Below are positions 1,535-60,420 of a DNA stretch of 64,000 nt, in pieces. The stretch comes from Malacoraja senta. Lineage: Eukaryota. Below the pieces are notes generated by a model, which saw nothing but the letters and a program-made list of their open reading frames with translations, was not told where the DNA came from and did no database searches. The stretch lies in the NCBI GenBank assembly GCA_038087875.1, contig CM075988.1, forward strand, positions 20,276,001 through 20,340,000, written 5' to 3'. How positions within the stretch are numbered: the stretch's first letter is position 1; each line of letters begins with the position of its first letter. The position numbers and the translations under genes are program-made.

Positions 1535-1858
1535 TCAATGACCTAAATAATGCTAACAGATGCTGTCTGAATATTTCCAGCATTTTCAACTTTATTTCGG
1601 ATATCTAGCATCTGCATTATTTTGCTTTTTAATCTGCTTGGTCATCTAGGACATCATCTTGATTTGGCTAGAGTTCTGAATTCAGATGGTGCAAAAACCT
1701 ACACAAACAATACTTCGAGAGATAGTACATACAGAGATAGTCGATATTTTGGTTTCTAATGCAGGGTCACGACCCGAAACAGGACCATTACTTCTACAGA
1801 TACTGACTGACCCACTGAGTTCCTCCAGATTCCAACATCTGCAGTCTATTGTGTCTCC
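1535..1858 (+). mobile_element. Two Penelope-like terminal-repeat arms (one old; one with decayed hammerhead core)
   Basis: ACAGATGCTG...TTTCCAGCATTTT...AGCATCTGCA at ~1555-1630; GGGTCACGACCCGAAAC...CTGACCCACTGAGTTCCTCCAG...CATCTGCAG at ~1760-1858. Confidence 0.65.
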
Positions 1859-1899
1859 TGATAAATAGCATTTAAATGAGCTATAACTTCCTGATCTTC

Positions 1900-3634: not shown

Positions 3635-3725
3635 GGATACAAGGAACTGCAGATGCTGGTTTCCAAAAAAAGACATAAAGTGCTGGAGTAACTCAGCAGG
3701 TCTTGCAGCTTCCCTGGAGAACATA
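3635..3725 (-). mobile_element. Penelope-like solo arm
   Basis: ACAAGGAACTGCAGATGCTGG...AAAGTGCTGGAGTAACTCAGCAGGTC. Confidence 0.8.
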
Positions 3726-4649: not shown

Positions 4650-4830
4650 CATAAGAATCTACAGATGCTGGAATCTTAAGCAAAGCACAAAGTACTGGAA
4701 TAACTCAGCGGGTCAGGTAGCAACGTCAACAATTCCTTCTCCCCAGAGATGCTGCCTGTCCCGCTGAGTTACTCCAGCTTTTTGTGTCTAGCATCTGGGG
4801 AGAAAATGGACAGGTGACATTTCTTTAGAC
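4650..4830. mobile_element. Penelope-like inverted-arm element, rearranged
   Basis: TACTGGAATAACTCAGCGGGTCAGG versus CCTGTCCCGCTGAGTTACTCCAGC in opposite orientation. Confidence 0.8.
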
Positions 4831-5029: not shown

Positions 5030-5262
5030 CTATGACAGCAATCACCGAGGGCGAGCAGAGAGAGGCTCTCATTGAACAGAGAGGAGGGTGAACTTCTTCA
5101 AACTTCTCCCTCCCTTCTTTGAAGGATTATCACAGTGGAGCAGTAAAATAGGGACACAGATGGTGGAACCTCAAGCGAAGTGCTGGAGGAACTCAGCAGG
5201 TCAGGCAACAACTATGGAAGGAATGGACAGATGATGTTTCGGTTCAGGATCCTTCTTCATAC
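5030..5262 (-). mobile_element. Penelope-like arm, possibly with extended flanking element sequence
   Basis: GTGCTGGAGGAACTCAGCAGGTCAGGC...GATGTTTCGGTTCAGGATCCTTCTTCA; junction GCAGTAAAATAG resembles GCAGACAAAATG at 25645. Confidence 0.6.
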
Positions 5263-5769
5263 TCTCAGGTGGTGAGAGGTGTGGATTAAATAGAAAGGTT
5301 AATTGTGATAGATGAGAAAATCCATTGAGCTAGAATGAGATTCCGGTTTGGCAGTTTCTGTTCCCAATTACTGGAATATAGTGCAAGAAGAGATCAATTT
5401 ATTGGCTGTTCACCAAGAACACATTAGTTTGTGGCAAGATGACAAGATCTTTCCAGCGAGTTGTTGTGATGATTCTTTGCGTGGAGCCAGCTGAGTGCTG
5501 TTGACGGTCACAGGAAGGTCCAGCAATGGGTGGGAGATATCAGCAGCAACAGCTGCAGCCCTCTTCCCAGCTGTTAACATCTGCACGTTTACTAAAGCAA
5601 CAGCAGTCCAAGGAGACGATGGAACAAACCAAACACATGCAATGGAGAAAGGTCAGTTGAGATCCGTGGCCACAGAAGAGCAACACTTAGCACTTTGTCC
5701 ACCATTTCAAACCAGCTGAACTCAAGGGTCTAGTCTCAAATTCAGCCAAACTGTCAAAGGTTACTTGTT

Positions 5770-5945
5770 GAGACACAAGAAACTGCAGATGCTGGAATCT
5801 TGAGCAAAAAGAGGCAATACAGTATCTGTGGAAGGAATGGGCAAACACATTTTTTCAGGTCAGGACTCTTCTTAAGAAGGGTTCTGACCCAAACTTCATC
5901 TAGCTGTTCCCTCCACTGTTCTGCCTGACCCATTGGGTTACTCCA
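5770..5945. mobile_element. Penelope-like fold-back element
   Basis: Inverted arms centred on GACTCTTCTTAAGAAGGGTTCTGACCC. Confidence 0.75.
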
Positions 5946-5989
5946 AAGTTTCCTTCGAGCAATTAACCATCTGGATACATTGACATTAA

Positions 5990-6614: not shown

Positions 6615-8015
6615 GCATAGGACCATACAAAATGGAAACATGTCCTTCAGCTCAACTCATCCATGCTGACCAAGATGCCCCATCCAAGGTAGTCCCATTT
6701 GCCCGTGCTTGGCCCATATCTCTCTAACCTTCCCTATCCATGTACCTGCCCAAATGTCTTTTAAATGTTATTATCTTTCCTGCCTCAACCATTTCCTCAG
6801 GTAACATGTTCTATATGCCCACCACCCTCTGTGTGAAAAGGTTGCCCCCTTTCACTTTAAACCGATGTGCTCTAGTTCTTGATTTCCCTATCCTGGGTAA
6901 AAGACTCTTTGTATTCACCCTATCATTATTCATATATTCCAATAGTGCCACATTCCAATAGCCCTTTCCCCCCCTCTATGTCTGTAACCCTTCAAGTTTA
7001 ATTCCCTCAAGTCACAGAATCATCGAGTCATACAGCACAGAAACAGGCCCTTCGGTCCAATTCGTCCATGTCGACCAAGATGCTCCATCTTAGCTAGTCC
7101 CTTTTGCCTGCACTTAGTCCACATCCCTCCAAACCTTTCTTATCCATGTACCTGGCCAAGAGACTTTTAAATATTGTTATTTTACCTGCCTCAACTCCCT
7201 TCTCTGGCAGCTCATTCCATATATCCACCACCATCTGTGTGAAAAAAGTTGCCCCTCAGGTTCGTATTAAATCATTTCCCCCTCACCTTAAAACTATGTC
7301 CTCTGGTTCATGATTCAGAGTCCGGGACTCTTGCGACTCCATGCATTCATCCTATACATTCACATAATTTTATGTACCTCTATAAGATCACCCTTCAGCC
7401 TCCTGTGCTCCAAGCTCTCCGTATAAGTTCATAAGTGACAGGAATAGAATTTGATCATTCGGCCCCATCAAGTCTACTCTGCCATTCAATCACGGCTGAT
7501 CTATCTCTCCCTGCTTACCCCATTCTTCTGCCTTATCCCCATAACCTCTGACACCTGTACTAATCAAGAATCTATCTATCTCTGCCTTAAATATATCTAC
7601 TGAGTTGGCCTCTACAACCTTCTGTGGCAAAGAATTCCACAGATTCACCAACCTCTGACTAAAGAAATTCTTCCTCATCTCCTTCCTAAAAGAGCGTCCT
7701 TTAATTCTGAGGCTATGACCTCTAGTCCTAGACTCTCCCACTAGTGGAAACATCCTCTCCACATCCACTCTATCCAAACCTTTCACTATTCTGTACATTT
7801 CAATGAGGTGCCCCTTCATTCTTCTAAACTCCAGTGAATACAGGCCCAGTGCTGACAAACGCTTTTTAAATATAGCTAGCAAGTCCTGGCAAATTCTCGT
7901 AAATCTTCCCTGCACTCTTTTCATCTGAATGGTATCTTTCCCTCAGCAAGTTGATCAAATCTGAACACAACACTCCAAGTGCAGTCTCGCCGACATTTTG
8001 TACAGCTGTAAAGTA
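6615..8015 (-). mobile_element. Cluster of CR1 3' fragments; younger CR1 (~7420-7862) nested in an older one
   Basis: ORF 7490-7924(-) LGLYSLEFRRMKGHLIEMYRIVKGLDRVD...ESRTRGHSLRIKG...LWNSLPQ; older copy resumes after ~7863. Confidence 0.9.
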
Positions 8016-13609: not shown

Positions 13610-15365
13610 TCCATCACGCAGACCAGACTGCCCACCATTGACTCCATCCACACCACGCTGCCTCGGAAAAACAGCCAACATAATCAAAGACTTGTCACAC
13701 CCCGGTCATTCCTTCTTCTCTCTGCTCCTTGTTGGGCAGAGGTACAGAAGCTTGAAAATGTACACCAGCAGACTTAGGAACAGCTTCTTCCCTTCAGTTG
13801 TCAGGCATCTGAATGCTTCTTTCATACACAGTTTTTGTACACGGTATTGGGGGTTGAGTATTGATGTGGATAGAGAACTGGCTGGCAGACAGGAAGCAAA
13901 GAGTAGGAGTAAACGGGTCCTTTTCAGAATGGCAGGCAGTGACTAGTGGGGTACCGCAAGGCTCAGTGCTGGGACCCCAGCTATTTACAATATATATTAA
14001 TGATTTGGACGAGGGAATTGAATGCAACATCTCCAAGTTTGCGGATGACACGAAGCTGGGGGGCAGTGTTAGCTGTGAGGAGGGTGCTAGGAGGCCGCAA
14101 GATGACTTGGATAGGCTGGGTGAGTGGGCAAATGCATGGCAGATGCAGTATAATGTGGATAAATGTGAGGTTATCCACTTTGGTGGCAAAAACAGGAAAG
14201 TAGACTATTACCTGAATGGTGGCCGATTAGGAAAAGGGGAGATGCAACGAGACCTGGGTGTCATGGTACACCAGTCATTGAAAGTAGGCATGCAGGTGCA
14301 GCAGGCAGTGAAGAAAGCGAATGGTATGTTAGCATTCATAGCAAAAGGATTTGAGTAAAGGAGCAGGGAGGTTCTGCTGCAGTTGTACAGGGTCTTGGTG
14401 AGACCACACCTGGAGTATTGCGTACAGTTTTGGTCTCCTAATCTGAGGAAGGACATTCTTGCCATTGAGGGAGTACAGAGAAGGTTCACCAGACTGATTC
14501 CTGGGATGTCAGGACTTTCATATGAAGAAAGACTGGATAGACTCGGCTTGTACTCGCTAGTAGTTAGAAGATTGAGGGGGGATCTTATAGAAACTTACAA
14601 AATTCTTAAGGGGTTGGACAGGCTAGATGCAGGAAGATTGTTCCCGATGTTGGGGAAGTCCAGAACAAGGGGTCACAGTTTAAGGATGAAGGGGAAATCT
14701 TTTAGGACTGAGATGAGAAAAACATTTTTTACACAGAGAGTGGTGAATCTCTGGAATTCACTGCCACAGAATGTAGTTGAGGCCAGTTCATTGGCTATAT
14801 TTAAGAGGGAGTTAGATGTGGCCCTTGTGGCTAAAGGGATCAGGGGGTATGGAGAGAAAGCAGGTACAGGATACTGAGTTGGATGATCAGCCATGATCAT
14901 ATTGAATGGCGGTGCAGGCTCGAAGAGCCGAATGGCCTACTCCTGCACCTATTTTCTATGTTTCTATAAGCCTGGGTACTGTCCAATTCACCTCTACCCC
15001 ATTACAGACATTGGACATGTCTCTGGCACTGTTGCGCTACAATGCTGAGAACTGTATTCTGCACTCCATACCTTCCCCTTTGCTCTACCTATTGTATTTG
15101 AGTTTGGATAAATTGTATTAAAAGGAGGAGGACTGACTGAATTTTGTTGCCTTCCACCACGGTGAAGAATGCTGTGGTGGATGTTTATGTTAAATTCTAT
15201 TGTGTATTGTGTGTTCTTTTTTCAATTGTGTCGCTGCATGACAAACAAATTGGACTTTGGCTTTGACTTATGTATAGTATCATCTGATCCGAATGGATAG
15301 CATGCAAAACGATGATTTTCACTGTACCTCAGTACTCATGACAATAATAAATCTAAACTAAACCT
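13610..15365 (+). mobile_element. Rex1/Babar LINE 3' end, interrupted by CR1
   Basis: RCLGKTANIIKDLSHPGHSFFSLL..GQRYRSLKMYTSRLRNSFFP in ORF 13638; 3' UTR resumes at 14968 and ends TTTTCACTGTACCTCAGTACTCATGACAATAATAAA. Confidence 0.85.
13837..14967 (+). mobile_element. Young 5'-truncated CR1 LINE (RT C-terminal half plus 3' UTR) with one nonsense codon
   Basis: SGVPQGSVLGPQLFTIYINDLD...SKFADDTKL; ORFs 13861-14358 and 14383-14877 share one frame, separated only by TAA at 14356-14358; tail TTTCTATGTTTCTAT. Confidence 0.95.
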
Positions 15366-15524: not shown

Positions 15525-15712
15525 AGGGAGATACAAGGAACTGCAGAAGCTGGAATCTTGAGCAAAACACAAGGTGCTGGAGGAACTGAGCGGGTCAAGC
15601 AGCACCTGTGGAGGGAATGGACAGACGATGTTGCAGGTTGGCACCCTTCTGCAAACTGATGGAGTAGAGGGGGGAGAGCTGGAAAAGAGAGGTGGGGTCA
15701 GGACAAACCTTG
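15525..15712 (-). mobile_element. Penelope-like arm plus adjoining purine-rich segment
   Basis: ACAAGGAACTGCAGAAGCTGGAATCTTGAGC...CACCCTTCTGCAAACTGATGGAGTAGAGGGGG. Confidence 0.8.
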
Positions 15713-15949
15713 GTTGGAGACATTGACTCTACCTCGTCTGTGGAGCCAGCAGACTGGCAACTCATTCTGATTTCTCTATCCATTCGCTTCATGACTTGAT
15801 GATTCCACCATCCCTTCCCTGAAAGAATGTTTTCCAACAGAAATCCACCAACCTGGTCAGTTCCCCCCAGCCTGAAAGACAAATTTAACAAATGGCCACA
15901 TACATTACAGTAATGGGGCAAATGTAACAAAGAGAGCAAGTCAACTGGC

Positions 15950-16152
15950 AAAAAAACACACAGTTCTGGATCATCTCAATGGGTCGGGCAGTTTCTTTGG
16001 AGGGAATGGAAAGACGATGTGTTGGATCGAGACCCTCTGAAGAAGGGTCCTGATCCGAAACATCGTCTGTCCATTTTCCTTCACAGATGCTGCCTGAGTT
16101 ACTCCACAGTGTTTCGCTTAAGATTCCAGCATCTTCGGTTCCTTGTGCCTCC
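15950..16152. mobile_element. Penelope-like fold-back element with hammerhead core
   Basis: Core CTGAAGAAGGGTCCTGATCCGAAACATC at 16037-16064; degenerate flanking duplication CAAGTCAACTGGCAA / CAGGTCAACTAGGCAA. Confidence 0.85.
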
Positions 16153-17100: not shown

Positions 17101-17454
17101 ACCTATATTCCCCAACAATAATAATCAATACCTTAAGAGACAAACTATTTAATCATCAGCCAAGAAGCCATGATGCTCTTGTGGAAACCTGCTTCTGTTA
17201 GATTTCTGCTGATGTTGCAGGAACTATGTGCAGTGTGAGCCGTGGTCTCATTCAGTGCCCAACCAACGTCAGGAGAGCACCATCATGATAAAATGAATCA
17301 TGTACAGTAAAGATGGGCCTAATTACTAATGTGCGCGATTTTACCTGTAAGGGATCTAATCCAGGTGATCTAATCTAATGCATGATGAAATGTACAAGCA
17401 GTTCCAATTTATTTTTATCTCTTCTGGCCTGTTCACCCTGAATGTGATAAAAAC

Positions 17455-17660
17455 TAACTGCAGATGCTGGTTTATACCAAGGATAGACACAAAGTACTGG
17501 AGTAACTCAGCGGGTCAGGAAGCATCTCTGTAGAAAATGAATTTGGTGACGTTTCGGGTCAAATCTGAAGTACGATCCCGACCCGAAAAGTCACCTATCC
17601 ATTTTCTCCAGAGATGCTGCCTGACCCACTGGGTTACTCCAGCACCTTGTGTCTATTTCT
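17455..17660. mobile_element. Penelope-like fold-back element
   Basis: TAGACACAAAGTACTGGAGTAACTCAGCGGGTCAGG...GGTGACGTTTCGGGTC mirrored by GACCCGAAAAGTCACC...TTACTCCAGCACCTTGTGTCTA. Confidence 0.9.
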
Positions 17661-17687
17661 GTTCACACTGAAGCGACCTACTTCATC

Positions 17688-18061: not shown

Positions 18062-18394
18062 GAGACACGGAATGCTGGAATCTTGAGCAAAACACAAAGT
18101 GCTGGAGTAACTCAATGGTTTAGGCAGCATCCGTGGAGGGAATGGATGGATTGGAAAATGTATATAGTTTGCAGAACTACATTGTACAAAACTGGGAGAT
18201 AAAGATTTGGATAGGAATCACTTGGTACTGTAACCATGTAATGTGAGAATTGAATGAGAATAACTGTGGGCAATGCTCACATTTAGACCATGAAGAAGTC
18301 TGATGAAGGGTCTTGACCCAAAACATTGACTGTCCATTCCCTCTACAGATTCTGCCTGGCCTACTGAGTTCCTCCAGCACTTTGTGCTTTGACC
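18062..18394. mobile_element. Penelope-like inverted-arm element with unrelated filler and 14-bp TSD
   Basis: GGGAATCTTGAAAG at 18048-18061 and 18395-18408; decayed core CTGATGAAGGGTCTTGACCCAAAACATT near 18300. Confidence 0.88.
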
Positions 18395-21108: not shown

Positions 21109-21377
21109 GTCCATTGACTCGGTTCTACATTCTTTTCGGAGTCTAGTGTGTCTGCAACAGTGACTTATAAATGCACTGTAACACTGGGGTCGTAAATAGG
21201 AAAACCATTAAAAATTAAATTGTTAATCTCATGAATAAATACATTACAATGATCGATGGAGGTAAAATAGAGATGATGAAGATCGCTGATATATATTCAT
21301 TCGGCAATTTACTTCGCATCATATTTGGCACAGATTTTTTGGGCTGAAGGGCATGTTCCTGTGATGTACTGTTCTGT

Positions 21378-21510
21378 CTGAAGAAGGGTCTCGACCCGAA
21401 ACATCACCCATTCCTCTCTCCAGAGATGCTGCCTGTCCCGCTGAGTTATTCCAGCATTTTGTGGCTGTCTTTGATTTAAACCAGCATCTGCAGTTCCTTC
21501 CTACATATTT
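21378..21510 (+). mobile_element. Penelope-like solo arm beginning exactly at the hammerhead core, inserted in a CR1 tail
   Basis: CTGAAGAAGGGTCTCGACCCGAAACATC 21378-21405; flanks TGTACTGTTCTGT (21365-21377) and TGCACTGTCCTGT (21511-21523). Confidence 0.88.
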
Positions 21511-22174
21511 TGCACTGTCCTGTGTTCTATGTTCAAGTATATCTTAGTGCATGCGACTGAGAATAACTTACTACTTTTGATACGTGCCAGATTGCCTTTC
21601 TTCCGTAGCCAATGGTCATCTTTCTGACATAGTGAGGAAGCCACTTGCTGATTTTTCACAGTTTAGGACCAGGCATCATCCTTGCCCAGATAGACACAAA
21701 ATGCTGGAGCAACTCAGCGGGACAGGCATCCTTGCCTCTATCACCTTCCTCCCTTGTCTCAGAGTCTGGAGCAAAATTGAATTAAAACTTTTCTTAGCAC
21801 TTAATCTAAGTGGCAAAGATCTCGTTTCACATGATGTAAAACTTGATGTAAATATCAAAACCATTGAATGCAATGAGTGTGGATTAGAGACAAATGTGGA
21901 AGATTGTCAGGACAGAATAAACAGTAGTGACCTGTTGGGAATGATGTTGGCCAGGAATAGGGAAGGTTGGGATAAACAGATGTATTTTTGAAATAAAAGA
22001 ATAGATTTTAGTACATTGATAGATACATGGAGCGTGACTGCAGATTGGTGGGAGCAACCACAGATAGTTCCTTGATAATTCCTACTATTTGCCCAATCTT
22101 CCCCTCAGAATAATTTCCAGTGCTATTGAATGCGATCATTTCTCCTTTTAGATGTAAAAAATATAATGTGGCCA

Positions 22175-22790
22175 AAACACAAACTGCTCAAGGAACCTCA
22201 GCGGGTCAGGCAACAAATGTGGAGGGAATGGACAAGCGATGTTTTGGGTCGAGACTCTTCTTCAGATTGATGAGCTTGCTAGTCTTTAGCGGACCCCTAC
22301 CTCTCTCAACCCACTTCCTCCCCTCCCCTCTACTCCGTGTCCCAACCTATCTCCAACTCTTCCAGTCACCCTGTTCTGTTCCCCTCCTCTGTACATTCAT
22401 CTCCTATCCTTGAGTCCCTTTTAAGCCCCCTATATTTCCCCTCCCCCAGTGCCTTCCAGCTCCGACTTTACATTTCACTCTTCCTCATCTTTCCGTACCA
22501 GATACCATTTATGTTTCCTTTTTATCAAGCCTTTGTCACTTACTCCACCCATCCTCCAATCAGACCCCCCTCACATACGTACCTACCACTTGCCAGGCTT
22601 TGTCCCACCCCAACCTCTCTTTTCCAGCTTTCTCTCCCCTACTGCTATTAGTCTGAAGAAGGGTCCCCCACCCAAAACTTTGTCTGTCCATTCCCTCCCC
22701 AGATGCTGCCTGGCCTTCTGAATTCCTCCAGCACACTGCATTTCGCTGAAGAATCCACTCTCTGCAATTTCTATCCTTGTGTCTTCATTT
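22175..22790 (+). mobile_element. Longer Penelope-like 3' end: inverted arm, pyrimidine-rich region, direct arm
   Basis: Inverted arm ~22175-22270; CT-rich spacer resembling 53215-53335; GTCTGAAGAAGGGTCCCCCACCCAAAAC at ~22651. Confidence 0.85.
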
Positions 22791-23439: not shown

Positions 23440-23565
23440 AAGAACTAAGGAACTGCAGATGCTGAAATCCTGAGTAAAACAAAATGTGCTGGAAGAACTC
23501 AACAGACCAGGCAACATCTGTGGAGGGAACGGACAGATGATGTTTCGATCGAGACCTTTCTTCCT
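23440..23565 (-). mobile_element. Penelope-like solo arm
   Basis: AAGGAACTGCAGATGCTG...GGCAACATCTGTGGAGGGAACGGACAGATGATGTTTCGATCGAGACCTTTCTTC. Confidence 0.85.
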
Positions 23566-25145: not shown

Positions 25146-25589
25146 ATTTCCTCACACTAACTTTTAAAATTAAATAACCGGTTCCCTGTGGGAAGATCTC
25201 AGAGAAAGGTCCTTCACAGACTGTGACTCATCTGAGAAGGCTACTGACTTGAAATGTCACCTATCCATATCCTCCAGAGATGCTGACTGACCTGCTGAGT
25301 TACTGTGTGTTCAATGCAAGATCCCAGCAATTCCTTATGTCTAAACTCATTTGATGTGCTGCTGAATCCCAAATAGCAAAGTAGAATGTATGTCTTGAAG
25401 CTGTCGTGGCATTGTAACTTCCTGCAAAGGATTATTAAAGGTATATCCTATCTCTCAGAATGGTCTGTTGGTAGGTCAGTGGTCTATGAGCACTGATGAC
25501 AGTCTAGATCATGAAAATGGTGTGCAGGATCACACACTACATTCTGATCAGTGACCTTAACCATCTCTCAGTTTGGCAACACTTTGGTT

Positions 25590-26035
25590 TTAATATTCTC
25601 ATCCTATTTGCAAATCCTTCTCTTTCTCCAGTTCTTCAGAGTTAGCAGACAAAATGTGTAGGAAGGTAACTACAGATGCTAATTTCTACCGAAGATAGAC
25701 ACAAAATGCTGACGTCACTCAGCGGGTCAGGCAGAATCTGTGGAAATAAGCAATAGGCGACGTTTCGACCTTTCTGAAGAGGGGTCTTGACCCGAAACAT
25801 CACCCAAAGCATCTTTATACAAAATTGCTGCCTGACCTGCTGAGTTACTCCAGCATTTAGTGTCTACCTTCAGAGTTAACTATTCTTTTCCAATTCTCTT
25901 TAGCTTCCCTGATTTTAATTGCTTTTACATTGGCGACTGTACCTTCAGTTGGCACGGTTCTATGCTCTGGAATTCCTTCCCTGGCTCTCTCCCCTTCTCT
26001 AAGATGCTCTTTAAAACATGCACTTTGACCAAAAA
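25590..26035 (+). mobile_element. L2 3' fragment interrupted by a Penelope-like fold-back element (25645-25867)
   Basis: CTTCAGAGTTA at 25634-25644 and 25868-25878; core CTGAAGAGGGGTCTTGACCCGAAACATC 25774-25801; L2 motif GCTCTGGAATTCCTTCCC. Confidence 0.8.
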
Positions 26036-26574
26036 AAACTCAAGCACCGTTCTCTGCAATGGGATGATTTGTGATGATTGGCTACATTCCAAATGGTTCC
26101 CAAAAAGATTGAGCATTGAAGTCGGTGCAAGAATAATTGTAAACTTGGCAGCAGGAAGAAAGAGCGCACTCCATGACTCGGAACAAAATTATTGGTGAAA
26201 CAGCAAAGACTTTGTGTCATCATTTGATAACCATGTTTGATCTCTCCCGCAGCTGGAGTCTGTGATGGGGAATGCGGCCAGGTGGCAGGTTTGGGACTTA
26301 GGTTCGGAGTAGAATCTGCTAACTGCGGAGAATGGAAGGTTTACCAAGGCTTAGGGAGATCACGAGATGAACAGCAATGTATCGCAAGTGACCAACTGTG
26401 GAAAATAGTTAACCCCTTGTCTAAAACAAGCAGCCTTTTGCAATTCATTCATGGCTACTGATTATATCAAAGGCCATTCAAATTGCCACCTATTGAAACA
26501 TTATGCTTGTCTTTTGAGTTGCTGTTTGGAAATTCATGGCTCTCAAATTGGAGAAACTAGCAGCCACTGGAAAG

Positions 26575-26805
26575 ATTTAGACACAAAATGCTGGAGTAAC
26601 TCAACGGGTCAGGCAGCATCTCTGGAGAAAAGGAATAGGTGATGTTCCAGGTCAGGAACATTCAACAGACTGATGCCTGATGAAGGGTCTCACCCGAAAT
26701 GTCACCTATTCCTTTTCTCCAGAGATGCTGCCTGACCCGCTGAGTTACTCCAGCTTTTTGTATCTATCTTTGGTGTAAACCAGCATCTACAGTTCCTTCT
26801 TACAC
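26575..26805. mobile_element. Penelope-like fold-back element with CUGAUGA hammerhead core
   Basis: ~65-bp near-perfect inverted arms; CTGATGAAGGGTCTCACCCGAAATGTC 26677-26703. Confidence 0.9.
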
Positions 26806-27389
26806 AATCTGTTCCATTTGTTTTGGTTTTATAAGATTGGTTCCAATGCCAAGTGTTATACCAGATTTTAACTTCAGCTGAAGTTTTCCAAAAAATGTCA
26901 AATCTCCCACCATTTAGAAATGCGTCTTTTTTCACTTTTCCTGTCAAAAAGAACAATTTCACCATTCTTTTTTTTTACAATATATTTCATTTGCCAGATA
27001 TTTGTCAACTCACTTTAGCAACCTCGATCTTGTATGAACTAACCTTCCTGCCTAAGTTTGAGTCCTCAGGAAAGTTAGCGATCTGGTCCCCTTCACATTG
27101 TCAATTTTCAAATGAGAAAAAATTAAAAGCTGGAACAGGTATATTATGTTTGGCTAAATGAGTAAAAAAAATAGCCAGAGCCGAGCAATTTTCATGTACT
27201 AATCATTGTGTTTGTTATTGTCAGGATTTGATGGGAAGTTGAGGATAATGAGACTGTTTCATAGCCAGAAGAAAGAATTAGAGATTAGTCCAGTGCTTTG
27301 ACAGATTCTGAGAAACCAAATTTTGTGCAGGATTGTGCATTAAAGAGATATCTGCAAGTGCAAACAGGCCTTGACAGAAGGCAAGTACC

Positions 27390-31473: not shown

Positions 31474-31641
31474 AGGAGACAAATGAAACAGCAGTCGCTG
31501 TAATCTTGAGCAATTGCTAGAGTGTTGGAGGAACTCAGTGGGTCAGGTGGCATCTGTGGAGGGAATGGACAGGCGATGTTCCAAGTCTGATTCAGCCTGA
31601 AGAAGTGTTTTGACCTGAAACGTTCCATGTCCATTCCTTCC
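31474..31641. mobile_element. Penelope-like asymmetric fold-back element with perfect 12-bp TSD
   Basis: ATAAAATAACCA at 31462-31473 and 31642-31653; decayed core CTGAAGAAGTGTTTTGACCTGAAACGTT. Confidence 0.88.
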
Positions 31642-31849
31642 ATAAAATAACCATCCTTATTTCATGCAGTGACTGTTTCTCCAGAGTGACTATAGTAGGG
31701 TTGGGTGTCCTGCGGTGAGTGATTAATCACCGACAACCCCAAGCCGTGCACCGTCTTAGTTGGATCTGCTTCACCATCTCTTGACACCACTCACGACATA
31801 CCACCTTCTTTGGGTGGTCACCCATCTACCACTTAAAATATTCCTTCCT

Positions 31850-32722
31850 TCCACTAATGCTCCGTGGCTGCAGTGTGTGCCAAAATACACTGCATTTATT
31901 TACCTGGGTTAATCCAGCAGCTCCCTCCCATCTCATGATCTTGCTCAAGATGAACAAGGGCAGCAGGCATGGAAGAATACTGCCACATATCCCCTCCAAG
32001 CCACACAGGTTGGATATATATCGCCGGCCCTTTGTCAACACTGGCTCTAAATCCTGGAATTCCCTCCCCAAATTTGGGCAGCACAGTGACACAGCTGGTA
32101 GAGATGCTGCTCACAGCACCAGAGACCCAGGTTCGATGCTGACCTGATCTCCACACTGTTTGTGTGGAGTTTGCATGTTTTCCCTGTGACCGCGTGGGTT
32201 TCCTCCAGTTGCCCCAGTTTCTTCCCACATCCCAAAGACATGCGGGTTTGTAAGTTAATAGGTGTCTGTAAAATTACCCCCAATGTGTAGGTGATGAATG
32301 AGAAAGTAAGACGACATGAGTCTATTGAGAACTGGTGATGGGTTGGTGTGTACTCAATGGGCCGATGGGCCTGTTTCCATGCTATGCCTAAACTAAAGGC
32401 AACTTTACCTGAAGGACTGCAGCATTTCAAGAAGATGATTCACTCCCAACTTCTCAAGGACATTTACAGACTGTTAATAAATGCTGGTATTGGTGACACA
32501 AAGAACTGCAGAAACAGGAATCTTGAGCAAAACGCAAAATACTGGAGTAACTCAGCAGGTCAGACAGCATCTGTGGAGGGAAATGGACAGAGTAGATTTC
32601 AGGATTTGACAGCCCTGCCTGGATTAGAAATTGGTATGTTATTGTCAAGTGTACCAAGATATAGTGAAACCCTTGATTTGGAAGAATGCTAGCCTTATCA
32701 GCATCACCTTGTCCAAAAAGAG
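31850..32722 (+). mobile_element. Old CR1/L2-group LINE 3' end interrupted by HE1 (32076-32397) and a Penelope-like arm (~32495-32600)
   Basis: IYRRPFVNTGSKSWNSLP then, after the SINE, GGACTGCAGCATTTCAAGAAG...CTTCTCAAGG...AATAAATGCTGG. Confidence 0.7.
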
Positions 32723-34675: not shown

Positions 34676-35149
34676 AGCAGCTAATATCAGTCAATTCATT
34701 TGGTTTCTTATTGTGATAGAAAAGGAGTTGTTCTGGAAATTTCATTTCAAGGGCAAAGCTTTCATTAGCTGAAAATTGAAACCTGTATCACGGAAATATA
34801 TTGTGTCAGAACGATAGTTACTTGTTAAATAATTGATGCTATGGTTGGAAAAGGCTAGACACAAAATGCTGGAGTAACTCAACAGGTCAAGCAGCATCTC
34901 TGGAGAAAAGGTTATTCACGTTATTCTCTTTATCATGCATCTGTACACTGTGGATGGCTCGATTGTAATCATCTATTGTCTTTCCGCTGACTGGTTAGCA
35001 CGCAACAAAAGCTTTTCACTGTACCTCGGTACATGTGACTAAACTCAAATTCACACATTGTTAAATGCTTAATAGAATTCTAAACCTATACAAAATATAT
35101 TCTGGTGATTTCAGTAACTAAGAATGACGATATACTTAACAAGAACAAG

Positions 35150-35539: not shown

Positions 35540-35900
35540 ATCAGCCTATCAGGGAACCTCCTTGCCGGATCTGATTTGTTCTGTTTTTTTGCATTTCCAG
35601 TTCTTTTTCCCCCATCGCCCCTACTACAATCAATCTGAAGAAGGGTCCCGACCCGAAATGTCACCTTTCTATTATCTCCAGAGATGCTGCCTGACCCACT
35701 GAGTTACTCCAACATTTTGTGTCTATCACAACTACAAAGAGAAAAGAACCAGAGGGCAGAATATAGAGTTACATCTAAAGGACACAAAGTACTGGAGAAA
35801 CTCAGGCAACATCGATGAAGAGGTAGGTCCATGTTCTCCAGAGAAGCTACCTAACCTGGTGTCCTCTTATGTATTAACCAGTATCTGCAGTTCCTTGTTT
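35540..35900. mobile_element. Penelope-like 3' end with hammerhead core, plus a second degraded fold-back copy
   Basis: Pyrimidine tract then CTGAAGAAGGGTCCCGACCCGAAATGTC 35635-35662; second copy ~35780-35900. Confidence 0.85.
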
Positions 35901-36834
35901 ATATATAATGTTGCAGCTACAGAGAAAGTGCATTTAAAATAGTGCAAATAACTTAGCAAACATTTAGATAAACATTAACGTATGAGGAAAATATTCTAAC
36001 ATTATTCATATCTAAAATAGACAAGTCATGGGGCACAATATGTAAAGGTGCTGATCTGATCTCTGTGCTTGCAAGAATGCCTACTGATCCCCAGTAAGTA
36101 ACTTTGCCGTTGCTCCTGCTGTTTATCCGAGATTCAGGAACAATGCAGCACCGTGTAATCCTCAATGCGTTTTGTTCATTTTCCCACTCTGTGTCTGTGC
36201 ATGTTCTGGCTTCCCACAGGTAACAATGCAACCATTGCTTCCTCTCTGCAAGAGATCAATTTAGGCACTTCAACTTTCCATGAAACTTGATTTAATTCTG
36301 GTCTTTCTCAAGACATAATTGAAAGAAAATAAAGACAAATTAACCATGGAGCAGGTTTTTATTTCTCTTACCGCTGAGACTTGTTTGCAACTGTCCCTCA
36401 GGATAAGGAGTTGAAAATTGCAATACTGACAGAGCAGGAAGGGAAAGGTTTATTTTAATTAATTCATGCGGAGTTGCTGGCTAGACGTTTATTGCCCGTT
36501 CCAAATTGCCCCTGAATTGAGTGGGTATTTCAGAGGGGATTTCTGCATCAAATACTAGTGAGGGGTTAGTGCAAATGGCTGCCTGATAGTCAACAACGCC
36601 TGGATGGGCTGATGGGTACTGATGTTCTGTATGATTCTGTAAATGGCAATTATATATGCTTTGGGGGTAAAATGGAGAACACTTTTACATGATGCCGTTA
36701 AGGGGTTATTGAGTAATCACTGGATGTCGTTGTATTGGCATTTTGTGGGATGCACATGCTGAAAATTATAGAAAACAAACATTGAAGCGAGGCGGGGGAT
36801 CCAAACTAGTTGGATTCAACTTCTTCAAAAGATT

Positions 36835-39099: not shown

Positions 39100-39560
39100 T
39101 TAAGAGGCCAGAATATTACACAGTTAGTGGGGCATCGATGAAGTGTAGTCGCTGCTGTAATGTAGGAAAAGTGGCAGCCATTACCAACAATAAGCCCCCA
39201 CAGCTGGATATAACGATCAGATGGCGTTGAAGGAGTGAGATATATTGGCCAGGATACACGGAATAACATGTGTCGGAAAAGAGCTGCAGATGCTGGTTTA
39301 AATCGAAGGTAGACACAAAATGCTGGAGTAACTCAGCGAGCCAGGCAGCATTTCTGGAGAACACAAAATGCTGGAGTAACTCCGCGGGACAGGTGGCATC
39401 TCTGGAGAACACAAAATGCTCAAGTAACACATGGGACAGGCAGCATCTCTGTAGTCTGAAGAAGGGTCTCTCCAGAGATGTTGCCTGTCCCGCTGAGTTA
39501 CTCCAGCATTTTGTGTCGACACTGAATAACGCCCCGGCTCTTAAAAATAACGTCACTGGA
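39100..39560 (-). mobile_element. DeuSINE (SacSINE1-like) relic interrupted by a Penelope-like array
   Basis: GTAGTCGCTGCTGTAATGTAGGAAAAGTGGCAGCCA...ATATTGGCCAGGATAC [insert] GAATAACGCCCCGGCTCTT. Confidence 0.65.
39268..39518. mobile_element. Penelope-like element with three tandem ~48-bp arm units, a half core and an inverted arm
   Basis: Units start at 39313, 39361, 39409; TCTGAAGAAGGGTCTC 39455-39470; TSD ACAC(G/T)GAATAAC 39256-39267 and 39519-39530. Confidence 0.88.
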
Positions 39561-39669: not shown

Positions 39670-40230
39670 GTGCAGAAAAGAGTTATGAGAATACTGCTGG
39701 GACTTGAGGGCCTGAGATATTGAAATAGGTGGAGCAGGCTAAGACTTTATTTCTTGGCGCGCAGGTGGTCTAATAGAGGTGTATAAATCGTAAGTTGAAG
39801 AGATTGGGTGTATGCAGCCTTTTCCAGGGTAGGGGAATCGAGTACTGGAGGACATGGGTTTAAGGTTAAAGGGGAAGTGTTTAGTAGGATCCTGAGGGAC
39901 AACTTTTCACTCAAAAGGTGGTGGGTATTAGGAACAAGTTGCCAGTTGAGGTACACAAAAATGCTGGAGAAACTCAGCGGGTGCAGCAGCATCTATGGAG
40001 CGAAGGAAATAGGTAACGTTTCGGGCTGAAACCCTTCTTCAGACTGCCAGTTGAGGTAGTTGGGGCAGGTGCAATAATAACATTCGAAAGACAATTGGAC
40101 AGGTACATGGATAGGAAAGGTTTAGTGGGGTAAGGATCAAACATGGCCAAATGAGACTAGCCTAAATGGGGCATTGTGGTTGGCATGGGCTGAAGGGGTC
40201 TATTTCCAGAGCATATGACACTCTGACTTG
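39670..40230 (+). mobile_element. CR1 3' fragment hosting a 91-bp insert
   Basis: FSRVGESSTGGHGFKVKG; sequence continues seamlessly when 39954-40058 is removed. Confidence 0.88.
39954..40044 (-). mobile_element. 91-bp hammerhead-bearing mini-retroelement with perfect 14-bp TSD
   Basis: TGCCAGTTGAGGTA at 39940-39953 and 40045-40058; minus-strand core CTGAAGAAGGGTTTCAGCCCGAAACGTT 40042-40015. Confidence 0.92.
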
Positions 40231-45554: not shown

Positions 45555-46322
45555 GTGGCGTATAGAAGTTGGGAGGTCATGTTGCAGTTGTGTAAGACGT
45601 GGGTGAGACCACATTTAGAGTAGTGTGTTCAGTCCTGGGCACCATGTTATAGGAAAGATATTGTCAAGCTTGAAAGGGTTCAGAGAATATTTGCAAGGAT
45701 GTTGCCAGGACTAGAGGATGTGAGCTATAGGGAGAGGTTGAGTAGACTGGGTCGCTATTCCTTGGCGTGCAAGAGGATCAGGGATGATCGTATGGAAGTG
45801 TATAAAATCATGAGAGGAATAGATTGGGTAGACGCACAGAGTCTCTTGCCCAGAGTAGGGGAATCGAGGACCAGAGGAAATAGGTTTAAGGTGAAGGGAA
45901 AAAGATTTAATAGGAATCTGAGGGGTAATTTTTTTCACACAAAGGGTGGTGGGAGTATGGAACAAGCTGCCAGAGGAGGTAGTTGTGGCTGGGAGTATCC
46001 TAGTGTTTAAGAAACAGTTACGCAGGTACATGTAGGACAGGTTTGGAGGGATATGGACCAAGCGCAGGCAAGTGGGACTAGTTGTCCCAGCTACACTAGT
46101 CCCACTTGCCTGCGCTTGGTCCATATCCCTCCAAACCTGTCCTAACCATGTACCTGTCTAACTGTTTCTTAAACACCAGGATAGTCCCAGCTACAACTAC
46201 CTCCTCTGGCAGCTTGTTCCATACTCCCATCACCCTTTGTGGGCAAGTTGGGCCAAAGGGCCTGTTTCCACACTGTATCACTCTATGACTCTAAATAGGC
46301 CCTTCGGCCCAACTTGCCCATT
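45555..46322 (+). mobile_element. CR1 3' fragment with internal fold-back inverted duplication
   Basis: LPGLEDVSYRERLSRLG...ESRTRGNRFKVKG; 46096-46237 is the reverse complement of ~45942-46082. Confidence 0.92.
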
Positions 46323-48629: not shown

Positions 48630-48800
48630 AAAATGCAAAGTGCTGGAGGAATTCAATGGGTCAGGCAACATCAAACTAAAGAACTGTCCTGACCTGAAGC
48701 ATTGTCTGCCCATTCCTCCCCACAAATGCTACCTGACCCACTGAGTTCCTCCAGCACTTTTTGTACAATATTCTAGCATTTGCAGTTCCATGTGTTTTGC
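48630..48800. mobile_element. Penelope-like fold-back element, degraded
   Basis: AAAGTGCTGGAGGAATTCAATGGGTCAGG versus CCTGACCCACTGAGTTCCTCCAGCACTTT. Confidence 0.8.
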
Positions 48801-53045: not shown

Positions 53046-53370
53046 TACATTGGTAAGACAGAGCACAGACTCGGCGATTGTTTCGCTGAACACTTGTACT
53101 GGGTCTAGCAAGGCCGGCTGGACCTCCCGGTTGATAGCATCTCGTATTCTACTTGGGTCGATTGCAGCAACACTGTGATTGTGTGAACTTTGAATTCCCC
53201 AATTTTGGGTAGCTACCCAAACTTCTTCACTCCCCACCCCCCCACCCCCTCACCTGTATCAACATAATTTGCAGGCTTTGGCCTGCCCCTCTTCTCTTCA
53301 GCTTTCTTCTCTTTTTATCCCCCACCGGCCACAATCGGTCTGAAGGTCCTGACCTGAAACGTCACCACAT
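53046..53370 (+). mobile_element. Penelope-like element 3' remnant: GIY-YIG endonuclease pseudogene fragment, 3' UTR, hammerhead relic
   Basis: YIGKTEHRLGDCFAEHLYWV*QGRLDLPV from 53046; HLVFYLGRLQQHCDCVNFEFPNFG* 53138-53212; CT-rich UTR; CTGAAG-GTCCTGACCTGAAACGTC 53340-53363. Confidence 0.8.
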
Positions 53371-54104
53371 CAGGTTCTCTAGCTATAGCTGCCTGACCTT
53401 GTCTGTGACCAGTACGAGTCTTGGTGTGCAGCAGCATCGCTTGGGGAACAAGCTTGCCCCACCCACTGGCCGGCAGTTCTGGGATTAACCACCGGGACTT
53501 GTTTTTGCTCAGAAGGTTGGTGGGTGACTCTCCTTAGAAGGGGAGGTTTATTCATGGTTATGTCCGTTAAGCTATATACCTGTGACAAAGAACTTGACTA
53601 TTGATTAAATGTGAATAATTGTACAGCTAGCAAACACAATGTAAAAACAGCAAAATGTGACCTGTGTGTCACTTTCCCATTGAATAAAATAGGGGTACTC
53701 TACCAACATGCAGAGTGTGGAGGAGAGTTTCATGCAAATTGTATGTCTTCATTAATCTCAGTCATTTACAGTGGAATTATTCAATCATTAATCTCTTAAT
53801 TTGTTGGATCAATTTAAATTACCTTTGGAAATTGTATTGATTTGATTCCAGGGGGCACGGGTGCACTGGATTGTGAAATAGTGTAACTAATTGTGGTGCA
53901 TTTTATCTCTCATCTCCCTTAATATAAATTTACCTTGGTCTGCTTTATTGATGGTGCCATCTGCTAAGCAACGAATGTTAGCTGTTGAGGAGGGTGATGG
54001 GTTGAACTGGTCTCCTGGTAGGAGAGTCTGAACACTTGTTGTCGGCAATAGACTGGGGACACAGGGATGTGTCTCGTACCAAACTTTAACACGACAAAAG
54101 ATCC

Positions 54105-54295
54105 AGCCACTGAGTTGTGGATGGTGGAATCTTGAACAAAACAGTGCGGCTCAGACAGAATCTGTGTAGGGAATGGACAGACCACGCTTTGGGTCGGGAA
54201 GGTGTAATCTGAAGAAGGGTCCCGACCCGAAACGTCACCTGTCCATTTCCTCGACAGATGCTGCTGCGTTCCTCCAGCGCTTTCTGTGTTTTGAT
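54105..54295. mobile_element. Penelope-like fold-back element
   Basis: Inverted arms GGAATGGACAG / CTGTCCATTTCC around the best-preserved core. Confidence 0.85.
54209..54236 (+). ncRNA. Candidate minimal type I hammerhead ribozyme core
   Basis: CUGAAGA, extra A, helix II GGGU-CCCG-ACCC, GAAA, palindromic ACGU, GUC cleavage triplet; helix I pairing is weak. Confidence 0.7.
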
Positions 54296-54845
54296 ACAGA
54301 TTCTGAAGTTGTTTCCACGCTAAATGTAACTGTTGGCATTTGATATTCACAATATTTCATTCTGTGTTGAAATGAGCATGTTTCTAATTTCTGATTTTGA
54401 AAGTGATATTGGCATCGCTGATGAGAATGGAGACACAGTCCAAGGCTGAACTGTCAAGCCTTTGTTAATGTAATGAAGAACAGAGATAATGCAGTGCTTG
54501 GAGATTAGAAAACTTAGAACAGTGTGTTCTGCTGGTTTCCATCAAATGTGCAACAACGAGTCGAATTTCTGCCTCTTCTTCTCTTTTGTCTTTTAAATGT
54601 TAATTTTGTGAATTTAGCGCTAAGATGTTGCTTCCATTTTCTTGTTTTATGTAGATGTTAAATGACTTGTGTTGGCAAAGAAAATGTTTCTTCACACAAC
54701 AATGCATTTGCCATAAAATTCCTTTTGAGGGTAAACTTTTAAATGCAGCACTTCAGAAATCTATTAACACAAGGTCAAACTAAATAAATTCAATTATAAT
54801 GGCAAACTTCATCAATAGCAGATTGTCTTTGATTCCAGCAGGTGA

Positions 54846-55045
54846 TCTAAAACACAAAGTGCTGGTGGAACTCGGTGGGTCAGGCAGCATCTGTGGAAGG
54901 AATGGACGGGTGATATTTTGATTCTGGACCATTCATCTGACCCAGGATGTCGTGTCCATGTCCTCCATAGATGCTGCCTGACCTGCTGAGTTCATCCTGC
55001 ACTTTGTGATTTGCTTAAGGTTCCAGTATCTGCAGTTTCTTGTCT
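54846..55045. mobile_element. Penelope-like fold-back element
   Basis: Inverted arms; possible TSD TCCAGCAGGTGA (54834-54845) / TCCAACAGGTAA (55045-55056). Confidence 0.82.
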
Positions 55046-55624
55046 CCAACAGGTAAGTGCTTGTCATTCACACAAGATAACATGATTTTTTGATAATGTC
55101 ACCGTCCGGTATCAGTTGCTTCTTGGTTCCTCCAGACCGATCCAGACTTGATGGTAATCCAACCTGACAACGTGCTGCTGTATAGAGTGAGTGTTGCACG
55201 GATCGAGCCATTGCCTTTCAGATGCCCTACTAAATCTCAGCCCTGTCCGCTCCTGAGGGTTGTAGCTTGAACTATCTTGAATAAAATCAAAGAGTTTGGC
55301 ATGAAATCCTGGTGTTTGTACCTTGCTCATGGACTTGATCAGATTATTTAATCATTATATTGGTCTTTCTATGCATAATTTGGCCTGTTTTGTACATTAA
55401 AATCATGACTACGCATGCAGACAAAAATCTTCATTGGCTGCAAGGTGCAGCAAAGCCTACAAATGGGGGAATTGTGTCCATTATTGCCAATCGTCAGCTA
55501 TAACTGAGTGTAATATGGCATTTCAAGAATAGGGAAACAACAATAAAATTGCTCTGGTAAAGGTGCCTTGTTTCAGATGAAACATTAAAGCAAAGCCTTG
55601 CCTGCCCGAAGCTGCGAAGGTCGT

Positions 55625-58074: not shown

Positions 58075-58275
58075 TGTCCATATCTACCTATCGCTTACCA
58101 GATTCTGCCCACCCTCATCTCTTTTCAGCTTCCCCCTCCCGCCATCATTTTGAGAATGTTCCTAACCTGAAACATCGGTCCATTCCCTCCACAGATGCTG
58201 CCTGACCTGTTGAGTTCCTCCAACACTTTGTTGTTTTTCTTAAGCTCCCAGCATCTGCAGCTCCTTCGTATCTCC
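58075..58275 (+). mobile_element. Penelope-like 3' end (pyrimidine tract plus arm)
   Basis: CCTGAAACATCGGTCCATTCCCTCCACAGATGCTGCCTGACCTGTTGAGTTCCTCC. Confidence 0.8.
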
Positions 58276-59429: not shown

Positions 59430-59632
59430 ATGGAGAAACAAGACTGCAGATTCTAGAATGATGAGCCTGAAACAGTGCTGGCGGAACTCAGCGGGTCGGG
59501 TAGCGTCTGTGGAGGGAAAGGCTGGCGATGCTTTGGGTCTGAAGAAGGGTTCCAGCCTGAAACGATGCCTGTCCATTTCCCTCAAATGCTGCCTGACCCT
59601 CTGAGTTCCTCCAACACATTGTATTTTGCTTT
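59430..59632. mobile_element. Penelope-like fold-back element
   Basis: Core CTGAAGAAGGGTTCCAGCCTGAAACG from 59539 between inverted arms. Confidence 0.85.
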
Positions 59633-60114
59633 AAATAAGGATGTGTAAATGAGAATTTCATTGGATCCAATCCATGGTAAACCTTTAGAGTTGAGGTGAT
59701 CGTTGCTACCAACGCCCTCTAGTGGTTGGGTGATTACAGAACATTTTAAAATGGCTTGACACATACTGGAGTGCAGATAAGCGATGGTCTTAGCATCATG
59801 TTTGGCACTGGGCTGAAGGGCCTGTTGCGCTGTACTGTCTGTGCCAAACAGCAATAGTTGGTACAACTATGTATCAAGGTCATGTTATGTAGGGTAGATT
59901 CTTAAGTGTAGCCTAGATGTTCCAGTTATGCTTCACATTGATGGCCATTCACAGATACAGCAACAGTTCATCAATTCTGACTGATCATTGACCTGAAGTA
60001 TTATTTAGTTATTATTTGATTGCACTGTTGACCTATATTAAATTTCTTTTTTTATAATGGTCCATAAATTGCAGGGTCATGGACGAAAGGCAGACACCAA
60101 ATACATTTCTGCAG

Positions 60115-60420
60115 AATAAATTGCAGATGCTGGACTCTGGAGCCAAAATAAAGGAGAGCTGCTGGCAAAACGGTGTGCCAGGCAGCATCTGTGGAGGGAG
60201 ATGGATTGACAACAATTTGGGTTGGGACCCTTCACCTAGACTGAGTTTGGGGGAAATAGCCAAAGTAACGAGGTGGGGGGGGGGGTGAGGTGGTGACTGG
60301 AGAGGTGGTGTTCATTGGCGGTTGAGTGGAGTGAAGGAACGAGTTGGCGGGGTGGTGATGAGTGAAGAACAAAAGACTGCAGATTCTGGAACTGGATTGG
60401 GATGGGAGGTGGAGAATGGA
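60115..60420 (-). mobile_element. Penelope-like 3' end (arm plus purine-rich strand)
   Basis: TGCAGATGCTGG...CAGGCAGCATCTGTGGAGGG...GGGACCCTTCACCTAGACTG then G-rich tract. Confidence 0.7.

Follow-up and report, generated by a model that had tools for sequence, protein, structure and literature searches.

The locus at positions 54,105 to 54,295 of the 64-kb stretch of Malacoraja senta DNA analyzed here (the window) holds one copy of a short dispersed repeat with a hammerhead-like motif, which raises the question of what kind of mobile element has scattered this motif. The original prediction regarded the repeat as a very high-copy, non-coding, retrozyme-like parasite of a Penelope element. Our analysis favors another reading, namely that the repeats are 5'-truncated insertions from successive subfamilies of one autonomous, endonuclease-bearing (EN+) Penelope-like element (PLE), and we place the probability of this explanation at roughly three in four.

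Abundance and Decay of the Repeat

A profile of the repeat arm was built from 88 natural copies, with reversed sequence as a control. In the window, the profile search matched 47 arms in 30 loci, or one locus per 2.1 kb, and it gave no matches in the reversed sequence. The ~30 copies that had been predicted, at about one per 2 kb, were thus borne out, and the seven cores listed in that prediction were all found where it had placed them. The 30 loci comprise 16 single arms, 11 simple head-to-head inverted pairs, an arrangement that had previously been overlooked, and three more complex loci. The same search of 40 stretches of 10 kb from chromosomes C1–C14 gave 146 arms in 103 loci, and the arm alone accounts for ~3% of the sampled DNA (12,428 of 400,000 bases). 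When extrapolated to the 1.94-Gb genome from these C1–C14 stretches, with small contigs left out, this corresponds to ~500,000 loci (bootstrap 370,000–640,000), in keeping with the very high copy number that had been expected and above the 4,000–9,000 copies reported in PMC4209133. Exact searches of the genome returned 9,214 matches to one 32-letter core pattern and 19,101 matches to the 28-letter core of the youngest subfamily; in each case the pattern read backwards gave none. Direct tandem arrangements ('++' or '--') were rare, at 5 of the 133 loci in the window and sample. A tRNA scan found none, so no tRNA-derived head was seen in the repeat copies.

A strict test for an intact core was passed by two of the 30 window loci, 54209 (+) and 40042 (-), and by 12 loci in the 400-kb sample. 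Here and below, positions are numbered from C3 of the hammerhead core as 0, which puts the predicted cut between +27 and +28. Among 303 arms, the least conserved positions of the core region were the CpG positions +19, +20, +24, and +25, as anticipated from the CpG-type decay noted in the original prediction.

The focal locus and the window copies characterized individually were as follows:

54209..54236, + strand: minimal hammerhead core of the focal copy, one of the window's two intact cores
54206..54316, + strand: right arm of the focal locus, a stub of the PLE pseudo-LTR (pLTR) (profile search)
54105..54199, - strand: inverted arm on the left side of the focal locus (54139-54199 matched by the profile)
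53046..53399, + strand: longer decayed copy (nucleotide similarity and profile search)
39945..40046, - strand: youngest-subfamily stub with intact core 40042-40015, starting at -4
15530..15713, - strand: tailed stub with part of the upstream pyrimidine-rich 3' UTR
22574..22771, + strand: stub with upstream 3' UTR (~130 bases of common upstream sequence)

The profile search located these further copies:

1755..1859, + strand: pLTR stub
3637..3724, - strand: tailed pLTR stub without core
4651..4823, no strand: three-arm inverted locus
5156..5263, - strand: pLTR stub
5766..5952, no strand: inverted pair
15949..16149, no strand: inverted pair, core at 16037
17448..17662, no strand: inverted pair, one arm tailed and the other short
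18072..18390, no strand: two opposed arms with ~150 bases between them
21375..21512, + strand: tailed solo stub, core at 21378
21687..21732, - strand: short stub without core
22173..22269, - strand: pLTR stub
23443..23563, - strand: tailed stub
25231..25338, + strand: pLTR stub
25649..25876, no strand: inverted pair, core at 25774
26552..26811, no strand: inverted pair, core at 26677
31478..31644, no strand: inverted pair
32489..32603, - strand: tailed stub
34847..34915, - strand: stub without core
35631..35903, no strand: stub (core at 35635) beside a decayed inverted pair
39276..39525, no strand: three tandem minus arms facing one plus arm
48633..48796, no strand: inverted pair
54845..55048, no strand: inverted pair
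58153..58270, + strand: tailed stub
59435..59635, no strand: inverted pair
60104..60236, - strand: tailed stub

The focal core is laid out as CUGA-A-GA, an extra A, helix II, GAAA, the palindromic ACGU, and C17, and its cut is predicted to fall after 54236. The right arm of this locus starts 3 bases before C3 and carries an internal deletion, and the decayed tail of the left arm past the profile match was judged by eye. The copy at 40046-39945 belongs to the youngest subfamily, and the remaining window copies come from older subfamilies, in which the arm is the same. The tandem arm fragments at 39276-39525 are 48 bases each, which reads as repeated template jumps within one insertion.

The Hammerhead Motif

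The motif has the minimal PLE hammerhead core (CUGANGA, GAAA, and NUH) and, as had been proposed, is of the minimal type I Penelope kind, with an extra A after A9 and a helix III reduced to the palindrome ACGU (15.2-16.2); a G10.1-C11.1 pair is present as well. Read from the sequence, there are 4 bp in helix II and 2 bp in helix I (U-A or U.G, then G-C), within the 1–2 bp previously estimated for helix I. The minimal PLE hammerheads described in PMC4209133 share the type I core, the extra base between 9 and 10.1, the G10.1-C11.1 pair, and the palindromic 15.2-16.2, and they likewise occur mostly as dispersed single motifs that are ascribed to truncated PLEs. Both pLTR hammerheads of PLEs and their dispersed truncated copies were already published in that paper, so that an element of this kind is not new. 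The helices reported there for Schistosoma are longer (7–8 bp for helix II and 4–5 bp for helix I), and helix I of D. virilis has 2 bp. The hosts of PLE hammerheads in PMC4209133 include fishes, coelacanth, and Xenopus; cartilaginous fishes are not named among them in the available text.

Subfamily consensuses were derived from 303 near-complete arms, with arms of >8 gaps dropped and small clusters unused, and each well-filled cluster had the same single arm architecture. None of 11 core positions varied between the consensuses, as against 23 of the 65 positions downstream (Fisher p 0.03), which is the direction of difference foreseen in the original prediction; with a coarser clustering (8 clusters), 20 of 65 downstream positions varied (p 0.06 with a core gap artefact set aside). 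Within the motif, the changes affected loop II, gave U.G in place of U-A in both helix I and helix II, and alternated C with U at 17, and the exception to such changes at tolerated positions was CpG decay in the oldest clusters. The conservation of the core modestly suggests that it may be under selection in the source elements.

The covariance-model check that had been proposed went against the motif, as an Rfam scan gave no hammerhead among its 10 matches at E ≤ 10. In addition, the hammerhead fold was not the minimum-energy structure, either of the monomer (z -0.2 to +0.9) or of a co-folded dimer. The putative ribozyme probably acts as a dimer or with the help of protein.

An Autonomous Penelope-like Element Behind the Repeat

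The coding end of a GIY-YIG domain was found upstream of many exact-core copies, including copies of the window's older subfamilies. A search with one GIY-YIG frame gave 150 scored places, with 92–100% identity and open frames of up to 1,302 codons. In all 12 long-ORF loci that were examined, the hammerhead lies 120 bases past the stop codon; in five of these 12 it is also present ahead of the ORF, and four have an inverted truncated copy. Two partial tandems (L121 and L122) have a period of 3,918 bases and an overlap that is 99.7% identical. Full units are such 3,918-base partial tandems, in which the hammerhead flanks both sides of the RT-GIY-YIG frame. Because the hammerhead repeat lies beside RT-GIY-YIG frames and in these tandems, the repeat is the pLTR of an autonomous, endonuclease-bearing PLE. 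The predicted tie to Penelope therefore stands, but a separate non-coding parasite does not: it is the autonomous element that carries this sequence as its own terminal repeat.

The protein encoded by this element (P0001) is 1,212 aa long from its first ATG and is the product of a single ORF with an RT and, at the C terminus, a GIY-YIG domain. Its Pfam matches to RVT_1 (E 7e-6) and GIY-YIG (E 1e-3) are both slightly below the curated cut-offs, and GIY-YIG clears its cut-off in related frames. P0001 also has a DKG motif and a CX4CxxC linker (residues 1079-1087), and a zinc-finger-like CX2-5CxxC linker between RT and EN is a trait of Neptune and Nematis (PMC8557442). From these motifs, and not from a tree with named references, the element appears to be of the Neptune type. 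EN+ PLEs of the Neptune clade have the same single frame with RT, C-terminal GIY-YIG, CX2-5CxxC linker, and DKG, as well as the same partial-tandem pLTRs, inverted 5'-truncated copy, heavy 5' truncation, and optional 30–40-base tail at one end (PMC8557442). The M. senta element differs from Neptune PLEs in its ~5x10^5 loci, and its protein, with a proline-rich middle part, is longer than the ~700–1,000 aa of most relatives (240 were found at E ≤ 0.001). All eight of the other long copies compared were 98–99.6% identical, and the element family is therefore young.

In the L121 copy, residues ~160–480 of P0001, which separate the N-terminal part from the RT, form a long region rich in proline and serine; its length varies among copies (frames of 1,224–1,302 codons), and a region of this size is absent from most relatives. 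Between the stop codon and the core of the same copy (L121:3739-3836) lies a ~100-base pyrimidine tract that ends in CAG directly before the core. This ending is like a 3' splice site and resembles the intron of the D. virilis pLTR, and in older subfamilies GTAG or GTAA is present at the stop codon.

The window is linked to the element through nucleotide similarity only: a tblastn search of the window and sample with the young protein gave 28 matches, none of them in the window. The copy at 53046..53399 provides a direct in-window link to the autonomous element. It contains a remnant of the GIY-YIG coding end (53046-53106), a pyrimidine tract, and a degenerate core at 53340, and is 79% identical to the young ORF over 48 bases (E 3e-5), with E values down to 1e-8 against older subfamilies. 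In an all-against-all search of the older subfamilies, which undercounts low-complexity upstream sequence and is of supporting value only, upstream similarity was absent in 51 of 77 non-inverted core-bearing arms.

Insertion Sites and Ends of the Truncated Copies

Flanking duplications of ≥7 bases were observed in 27 of 34 solo stubs, 21 of which were 11–17 bases long including microhomology, and target-site duplications scoring ≥9 were found in 23 of the 34 versus 6 of 200 control pairs. The copies are single insertions with target-site duplications, and not tandem arrays. Short duplications of the target site are also a trait of EN+ PLEs. The insertion pattern bears on whether the repeat could be a true retrozyme, in which the unit is set by ribozyme cleavage and a circular RNA is inserted as tandem arrays. 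Retrozymes derived from PLE repeats have been reported, including in one cartilaginous fish (bioRxiv 10.64898/2026.07.22.740005), and animal non-LTR retrozymes likewise carry a type I hammerhead within a short repeat that is akin to a PLE pLTR (PMC7229834). Retrozymes, however, form tandem arrays with circular RNA and usually canonical ribozymes (PMC7229834; bioRxiv 10.64898/2026.07.22.740005), whereas the M. senta copies are inserted singly or as inverted pairs, with ends that bear no relation to the cut site, helices without canonical sizes, and a sequence contiguous with a coding element. A few tandem duplications are present (L030/L031, L034/L035, and C1:28,902,285-28,903,859, all described below), but direct tandems are rare. 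The copies thus form neither a tandem array nor a non-coding unit delimited by cleavage, two marks of a retrozyme. We regard a true retrozyme as scarcely credible, and the retrozyme reading of the window copies is already largely refuted.

The 5' ends were mapped in 77 youngest-subfamily arms, all drawn from the initial 8.2 Mb of C1. More than half of them (42) lay at -6..+7 and 13 lay beyond -490, with none at -489..-201, five at -200..-137, none at -136..-17, two at -16..-7, six at +8..+26, five at +27..+32, and four at +33..+52. The anchor was a stretch of 41 bases lying 3' of the cut site in the youngest subfamily, with 20,323 exact matches genome-wide. Breakpoint patterns that demanded two non-reference bases before a given position matched the genome 2,296 times at -2 and 1,380 times at -3, compared with 201 times at the cut site (+28), where the pattern permitted two letters at the first position, and 86 times at a control site (+36). 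Ends at the ribozyme front edge are thus ~10 times commoner per position than ends at the cut site. The next 12 upstream bases were kept in 6,543 of the 19,101 exact cores genome-wide, although some of the loss is point mutation.

That 5' ends gather near the ribozyme's front edge, and not at the cut site, indicates that templates were mostly uncut, and young copies span the predicted cut site. Their start at the front edge suggests that they were copied from uncut RNA to its start. Breakpoints at the cut site are ~2 times as frequent as at the control site, which is compatible with a minority of cut templates. In Neptune PLEs, by contrast, truncation points are spread (PMC8557442).

Two further observations concern the junction itself. 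A G preceded the -2 breakpoint in 52 of 100 among the matches listed (counted by eye; p 4e-6) and the -3 breakpoint in 35 of 100 among the matches listed (p 0.06), and the single extra base after the duplication was G in four of five cases. The excess at -2 is as expected from copying of a cap, and microhomology with the element's own GG runs can also account for it. The sequence at -5..+1 reads TCAGTCT, which we take to fit the initiator consensus YYANWYY. Four contigs from presumed RNA runs of related organisms had loose ends at -6..-3 with a step in depth there; since such ends also fit divergence of the upstream sequence, we did not count them as evidence for the pile-up.

An element of PLE origin could also produce this pile-up if it marked a site of stalling or template switching and not the RNA start. 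The RT might fail as it exits the ribozyme, at the palindrome TCAG-T-CTGA, or at the pyrimidine tract; alternatively, the RNA might be opened at the CAG|T junction that resembles a 3' splice site. In line with this, the palindrome is centered on -1 and often used by inverted junctions, the core is preceded by a long pyrimidine tract ending in CAG, the D. virilis intron ends at helix I (PMC4209133), and a further small cluster of 5' ends at -200..-137 (5 of 77) might reflect a start farther upstream. Against it, none of the 77 ends falls within the tract (-136..-17), most solo stubs are without an inverted partner to pair with, and one guessed spliced junction had no matches genome-wide, nor does a dominant common exon stand before the -3/-2 breakpoints. 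Overall, we consider stalling or switching unlikely, though far from negligible.

At the other side of the copies there are two fixed 3' ends, at +92/93 and +127-131 from C3. Among the adjacent inverted events, which number 17 with L152 and L153 taken as one, 13 pair a short with a tailed arm, two do not, and two are ambiguous; if both ends were equally likely, pairing in 13 of 15 would have p ~0.004 (hand calculation). Solo arms were short in 37 of 49 cases. These ends also weigh on the antisense-template model proposed for rotifer PLEs (PMC3846280), in which antisense RNA would prime itself at the palindrome and the cluster at -6..+7 would be the priming end. That model was put forward to explain the palindromes of inverted junctions, but in M. 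senta it is the 3' ends that are sharp (+92/93 and +128-131), the 5' junctions show extra bases, 5'-end repeats, and random truncation, and in the anole the enzyme begins at the tail sites of a sense RNA (PMC11167929). We view the antisense model as very improbable for this family.

A Model for Copying and Insertion

Under the reading that we prefer, truncated insertions of an autonomous PLE, the mRNA of the element would start at -2/-3 in the initiator-like TCAGTCT, a position taken from DNA breakpoints, and the element protein would use nicks in the target to prime reverse transcription, beginning at two internal sites in the repeat. With a start 2–3 bases before the core, a cDNA primed in the mRNA's 5' repeat would run off the RNA start after 95–135 bases and so yield a stub. 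Priming on the 3' repeat would yield long, randomly truncated copies, and priming on both target strands, from one site each, would yield inverted pairs. The template would be uncut RNA, and the ribozyme would be maintained in source elements and decay neutrally in stubs. We lean slightly toward the mRNA start, the two internal priming sites, the run-off stubs, and the two-strand priming being correct together. That the half-million stubs are 'strong-stop'-like run-off products, inserted at a high rate with one start site per target strand, is to our minds an even call, and a fraction of the stubs may themselves act as sources.

Several steps have published parallels. In vitro, RT of an anole PLE starts at two internal sites that match tail ends, both target strands are nicked and extended, a 5'-shortened template gives a shorter product, and uncut RNA is the main substrate (PMC11167929). 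The same green anole element, Poseidon, resembles the M. senta family in its two internal start sites corresponding to tail ends, in the priming of both strands, and in the uncut template that we propose. It differs in that its ribozyme overlaps the start codon and priming is inside the ORF, whereas in M. senta the ribozyme and both 3' ends are in the 5' UTR, 163 bases before the first ATG. A term search of the available text of PMC11167929 found no discussion of solo stubs or target-site duplications. An internal promoter with an initiator and a downstream element is known from D. virilis Penelope (PMC2377424). Against run-off, the RNA start is read entirely from DNA breakpoints, and the near-palindrome at -5..+3 could attract junctions.

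Short and long young copies were not fully alike. The +28 allele was G in 28 of 42 short versus 6 of 18 long young copies (p 0.02; this is one among the eight sites listed), and mean divergence was 2.4% in short versus 0.9% in long copies, which argues against a single shared source at one time. These differences in one allele frequency and in divergence are among the grounds for supposing that some stubs constitute a non-autonomous, SINE-like family that is self-transcribed and copied in trans by the PLE protein. Such stubs would hold the initiator, the ribozyme, and both priming sites, and in rotifers pLTR sequences suffice for mobilization in trans (PMC3846280). However, both +28 alleles occur in the short and in the long class, no site is private to the short class in the 42 short copies examined, and an older age, or loss of long copies over time, explains the same difference. 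In addition, the in vitro activity of the anole protein depends on ORF sequence downstream of the repeat (PMC11167929), and stubs would be without it if that requirement holds here. We therefore judge a SINE-like family to be improbable.

Relation to Other Penelope-like Elements

The repeat thus belongs to an ordinary but extremely successful PLE family, the value of which is as a test bed for open questions on PLEs: how they insert, how inverted ends with a one-sided tail arise, and what role the hammerhead has. Near-identical full frames and ~20,000 identical 3' ends supply statistics from in vivo insertions that are consistent with the one in vitro study, and the statistics of the young copies predict a specific RNA start and a rule of one priming site per strand. 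If run-off is true, thousands of young copies would record the RNA start, two priming sites, and an uncut template.

PLE hammerheads and the way in which truncated elements disperse them as single motifs are already published, as are inverted ends and tails (PMC8557442), and a PLE expansion in a shark genome has been mentioned (bioRxiv 10.1101/443036). For the pile-up of 5' ends of young copies at the front edge of the ribozyme, we found no published counterpart. Our literature search, which also covered hammerhead retrotransposons of cartilaginous fishes, found no paper on such a pile-up; nor did it find one on the ribozyme of this PLE family, with subscription papers, Repbase, and Dfam lying outside the search. 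The M. senta family may already be listed in Repbase, Dfam, or the supplements of preprints.

Other Observations in the Window and Genome

Repeats make up ~40% of the window. Fragments of non-LTR retrotransposons, which we presume to be CR1/L2-like, are present at 13858-14877, 7490-7942, 45624-46010, and elsewhere, with an RT match (E 2e-13) at 13858-14355. No credible Pfam domain of a host gene was found in 146 non-repeat frames (of 235 listed, plus two LINE frames).

A second PLE family was observed in the genome as tandem arrays, several of them near contig ends, with long TAACCC telomeric runs in sense orientation; its sites include L061, L067, L068, L069, and L074 (C4451, C5550, C14:18.39 Mb/18.49 Mb, C4472, and C2147), and more exist. 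It has an intact 759-codon RT and GIY-YIG frame, which shares 31.5% identity with P0001. An upstream frame overlaps this one and weakly matches a GDSL lipase (E 0.004), and the family also has a hammerhead-like motif in which no clear NUH is seen. Judged by these features, this would be a telomere-associated yet endonuclease-keeping PLE in a vertebrate; our literature search found no paper on one.

Exact young cores, at least five of them and together with upstream sequence, recur at C1:28,902,285-28,903,859 with a period of 383–384 bases, and this pLTR array is a retrozyme-like satellite born from the element. Direct tandem pairs of cores were seen 38 bases apart at L034/L035 (C1:3,997,405-3,997,474) and 173 bases apart at L030/L031 (C1:3,601,827-3,602,031), and both are natural dimers suited to a cleavage test.
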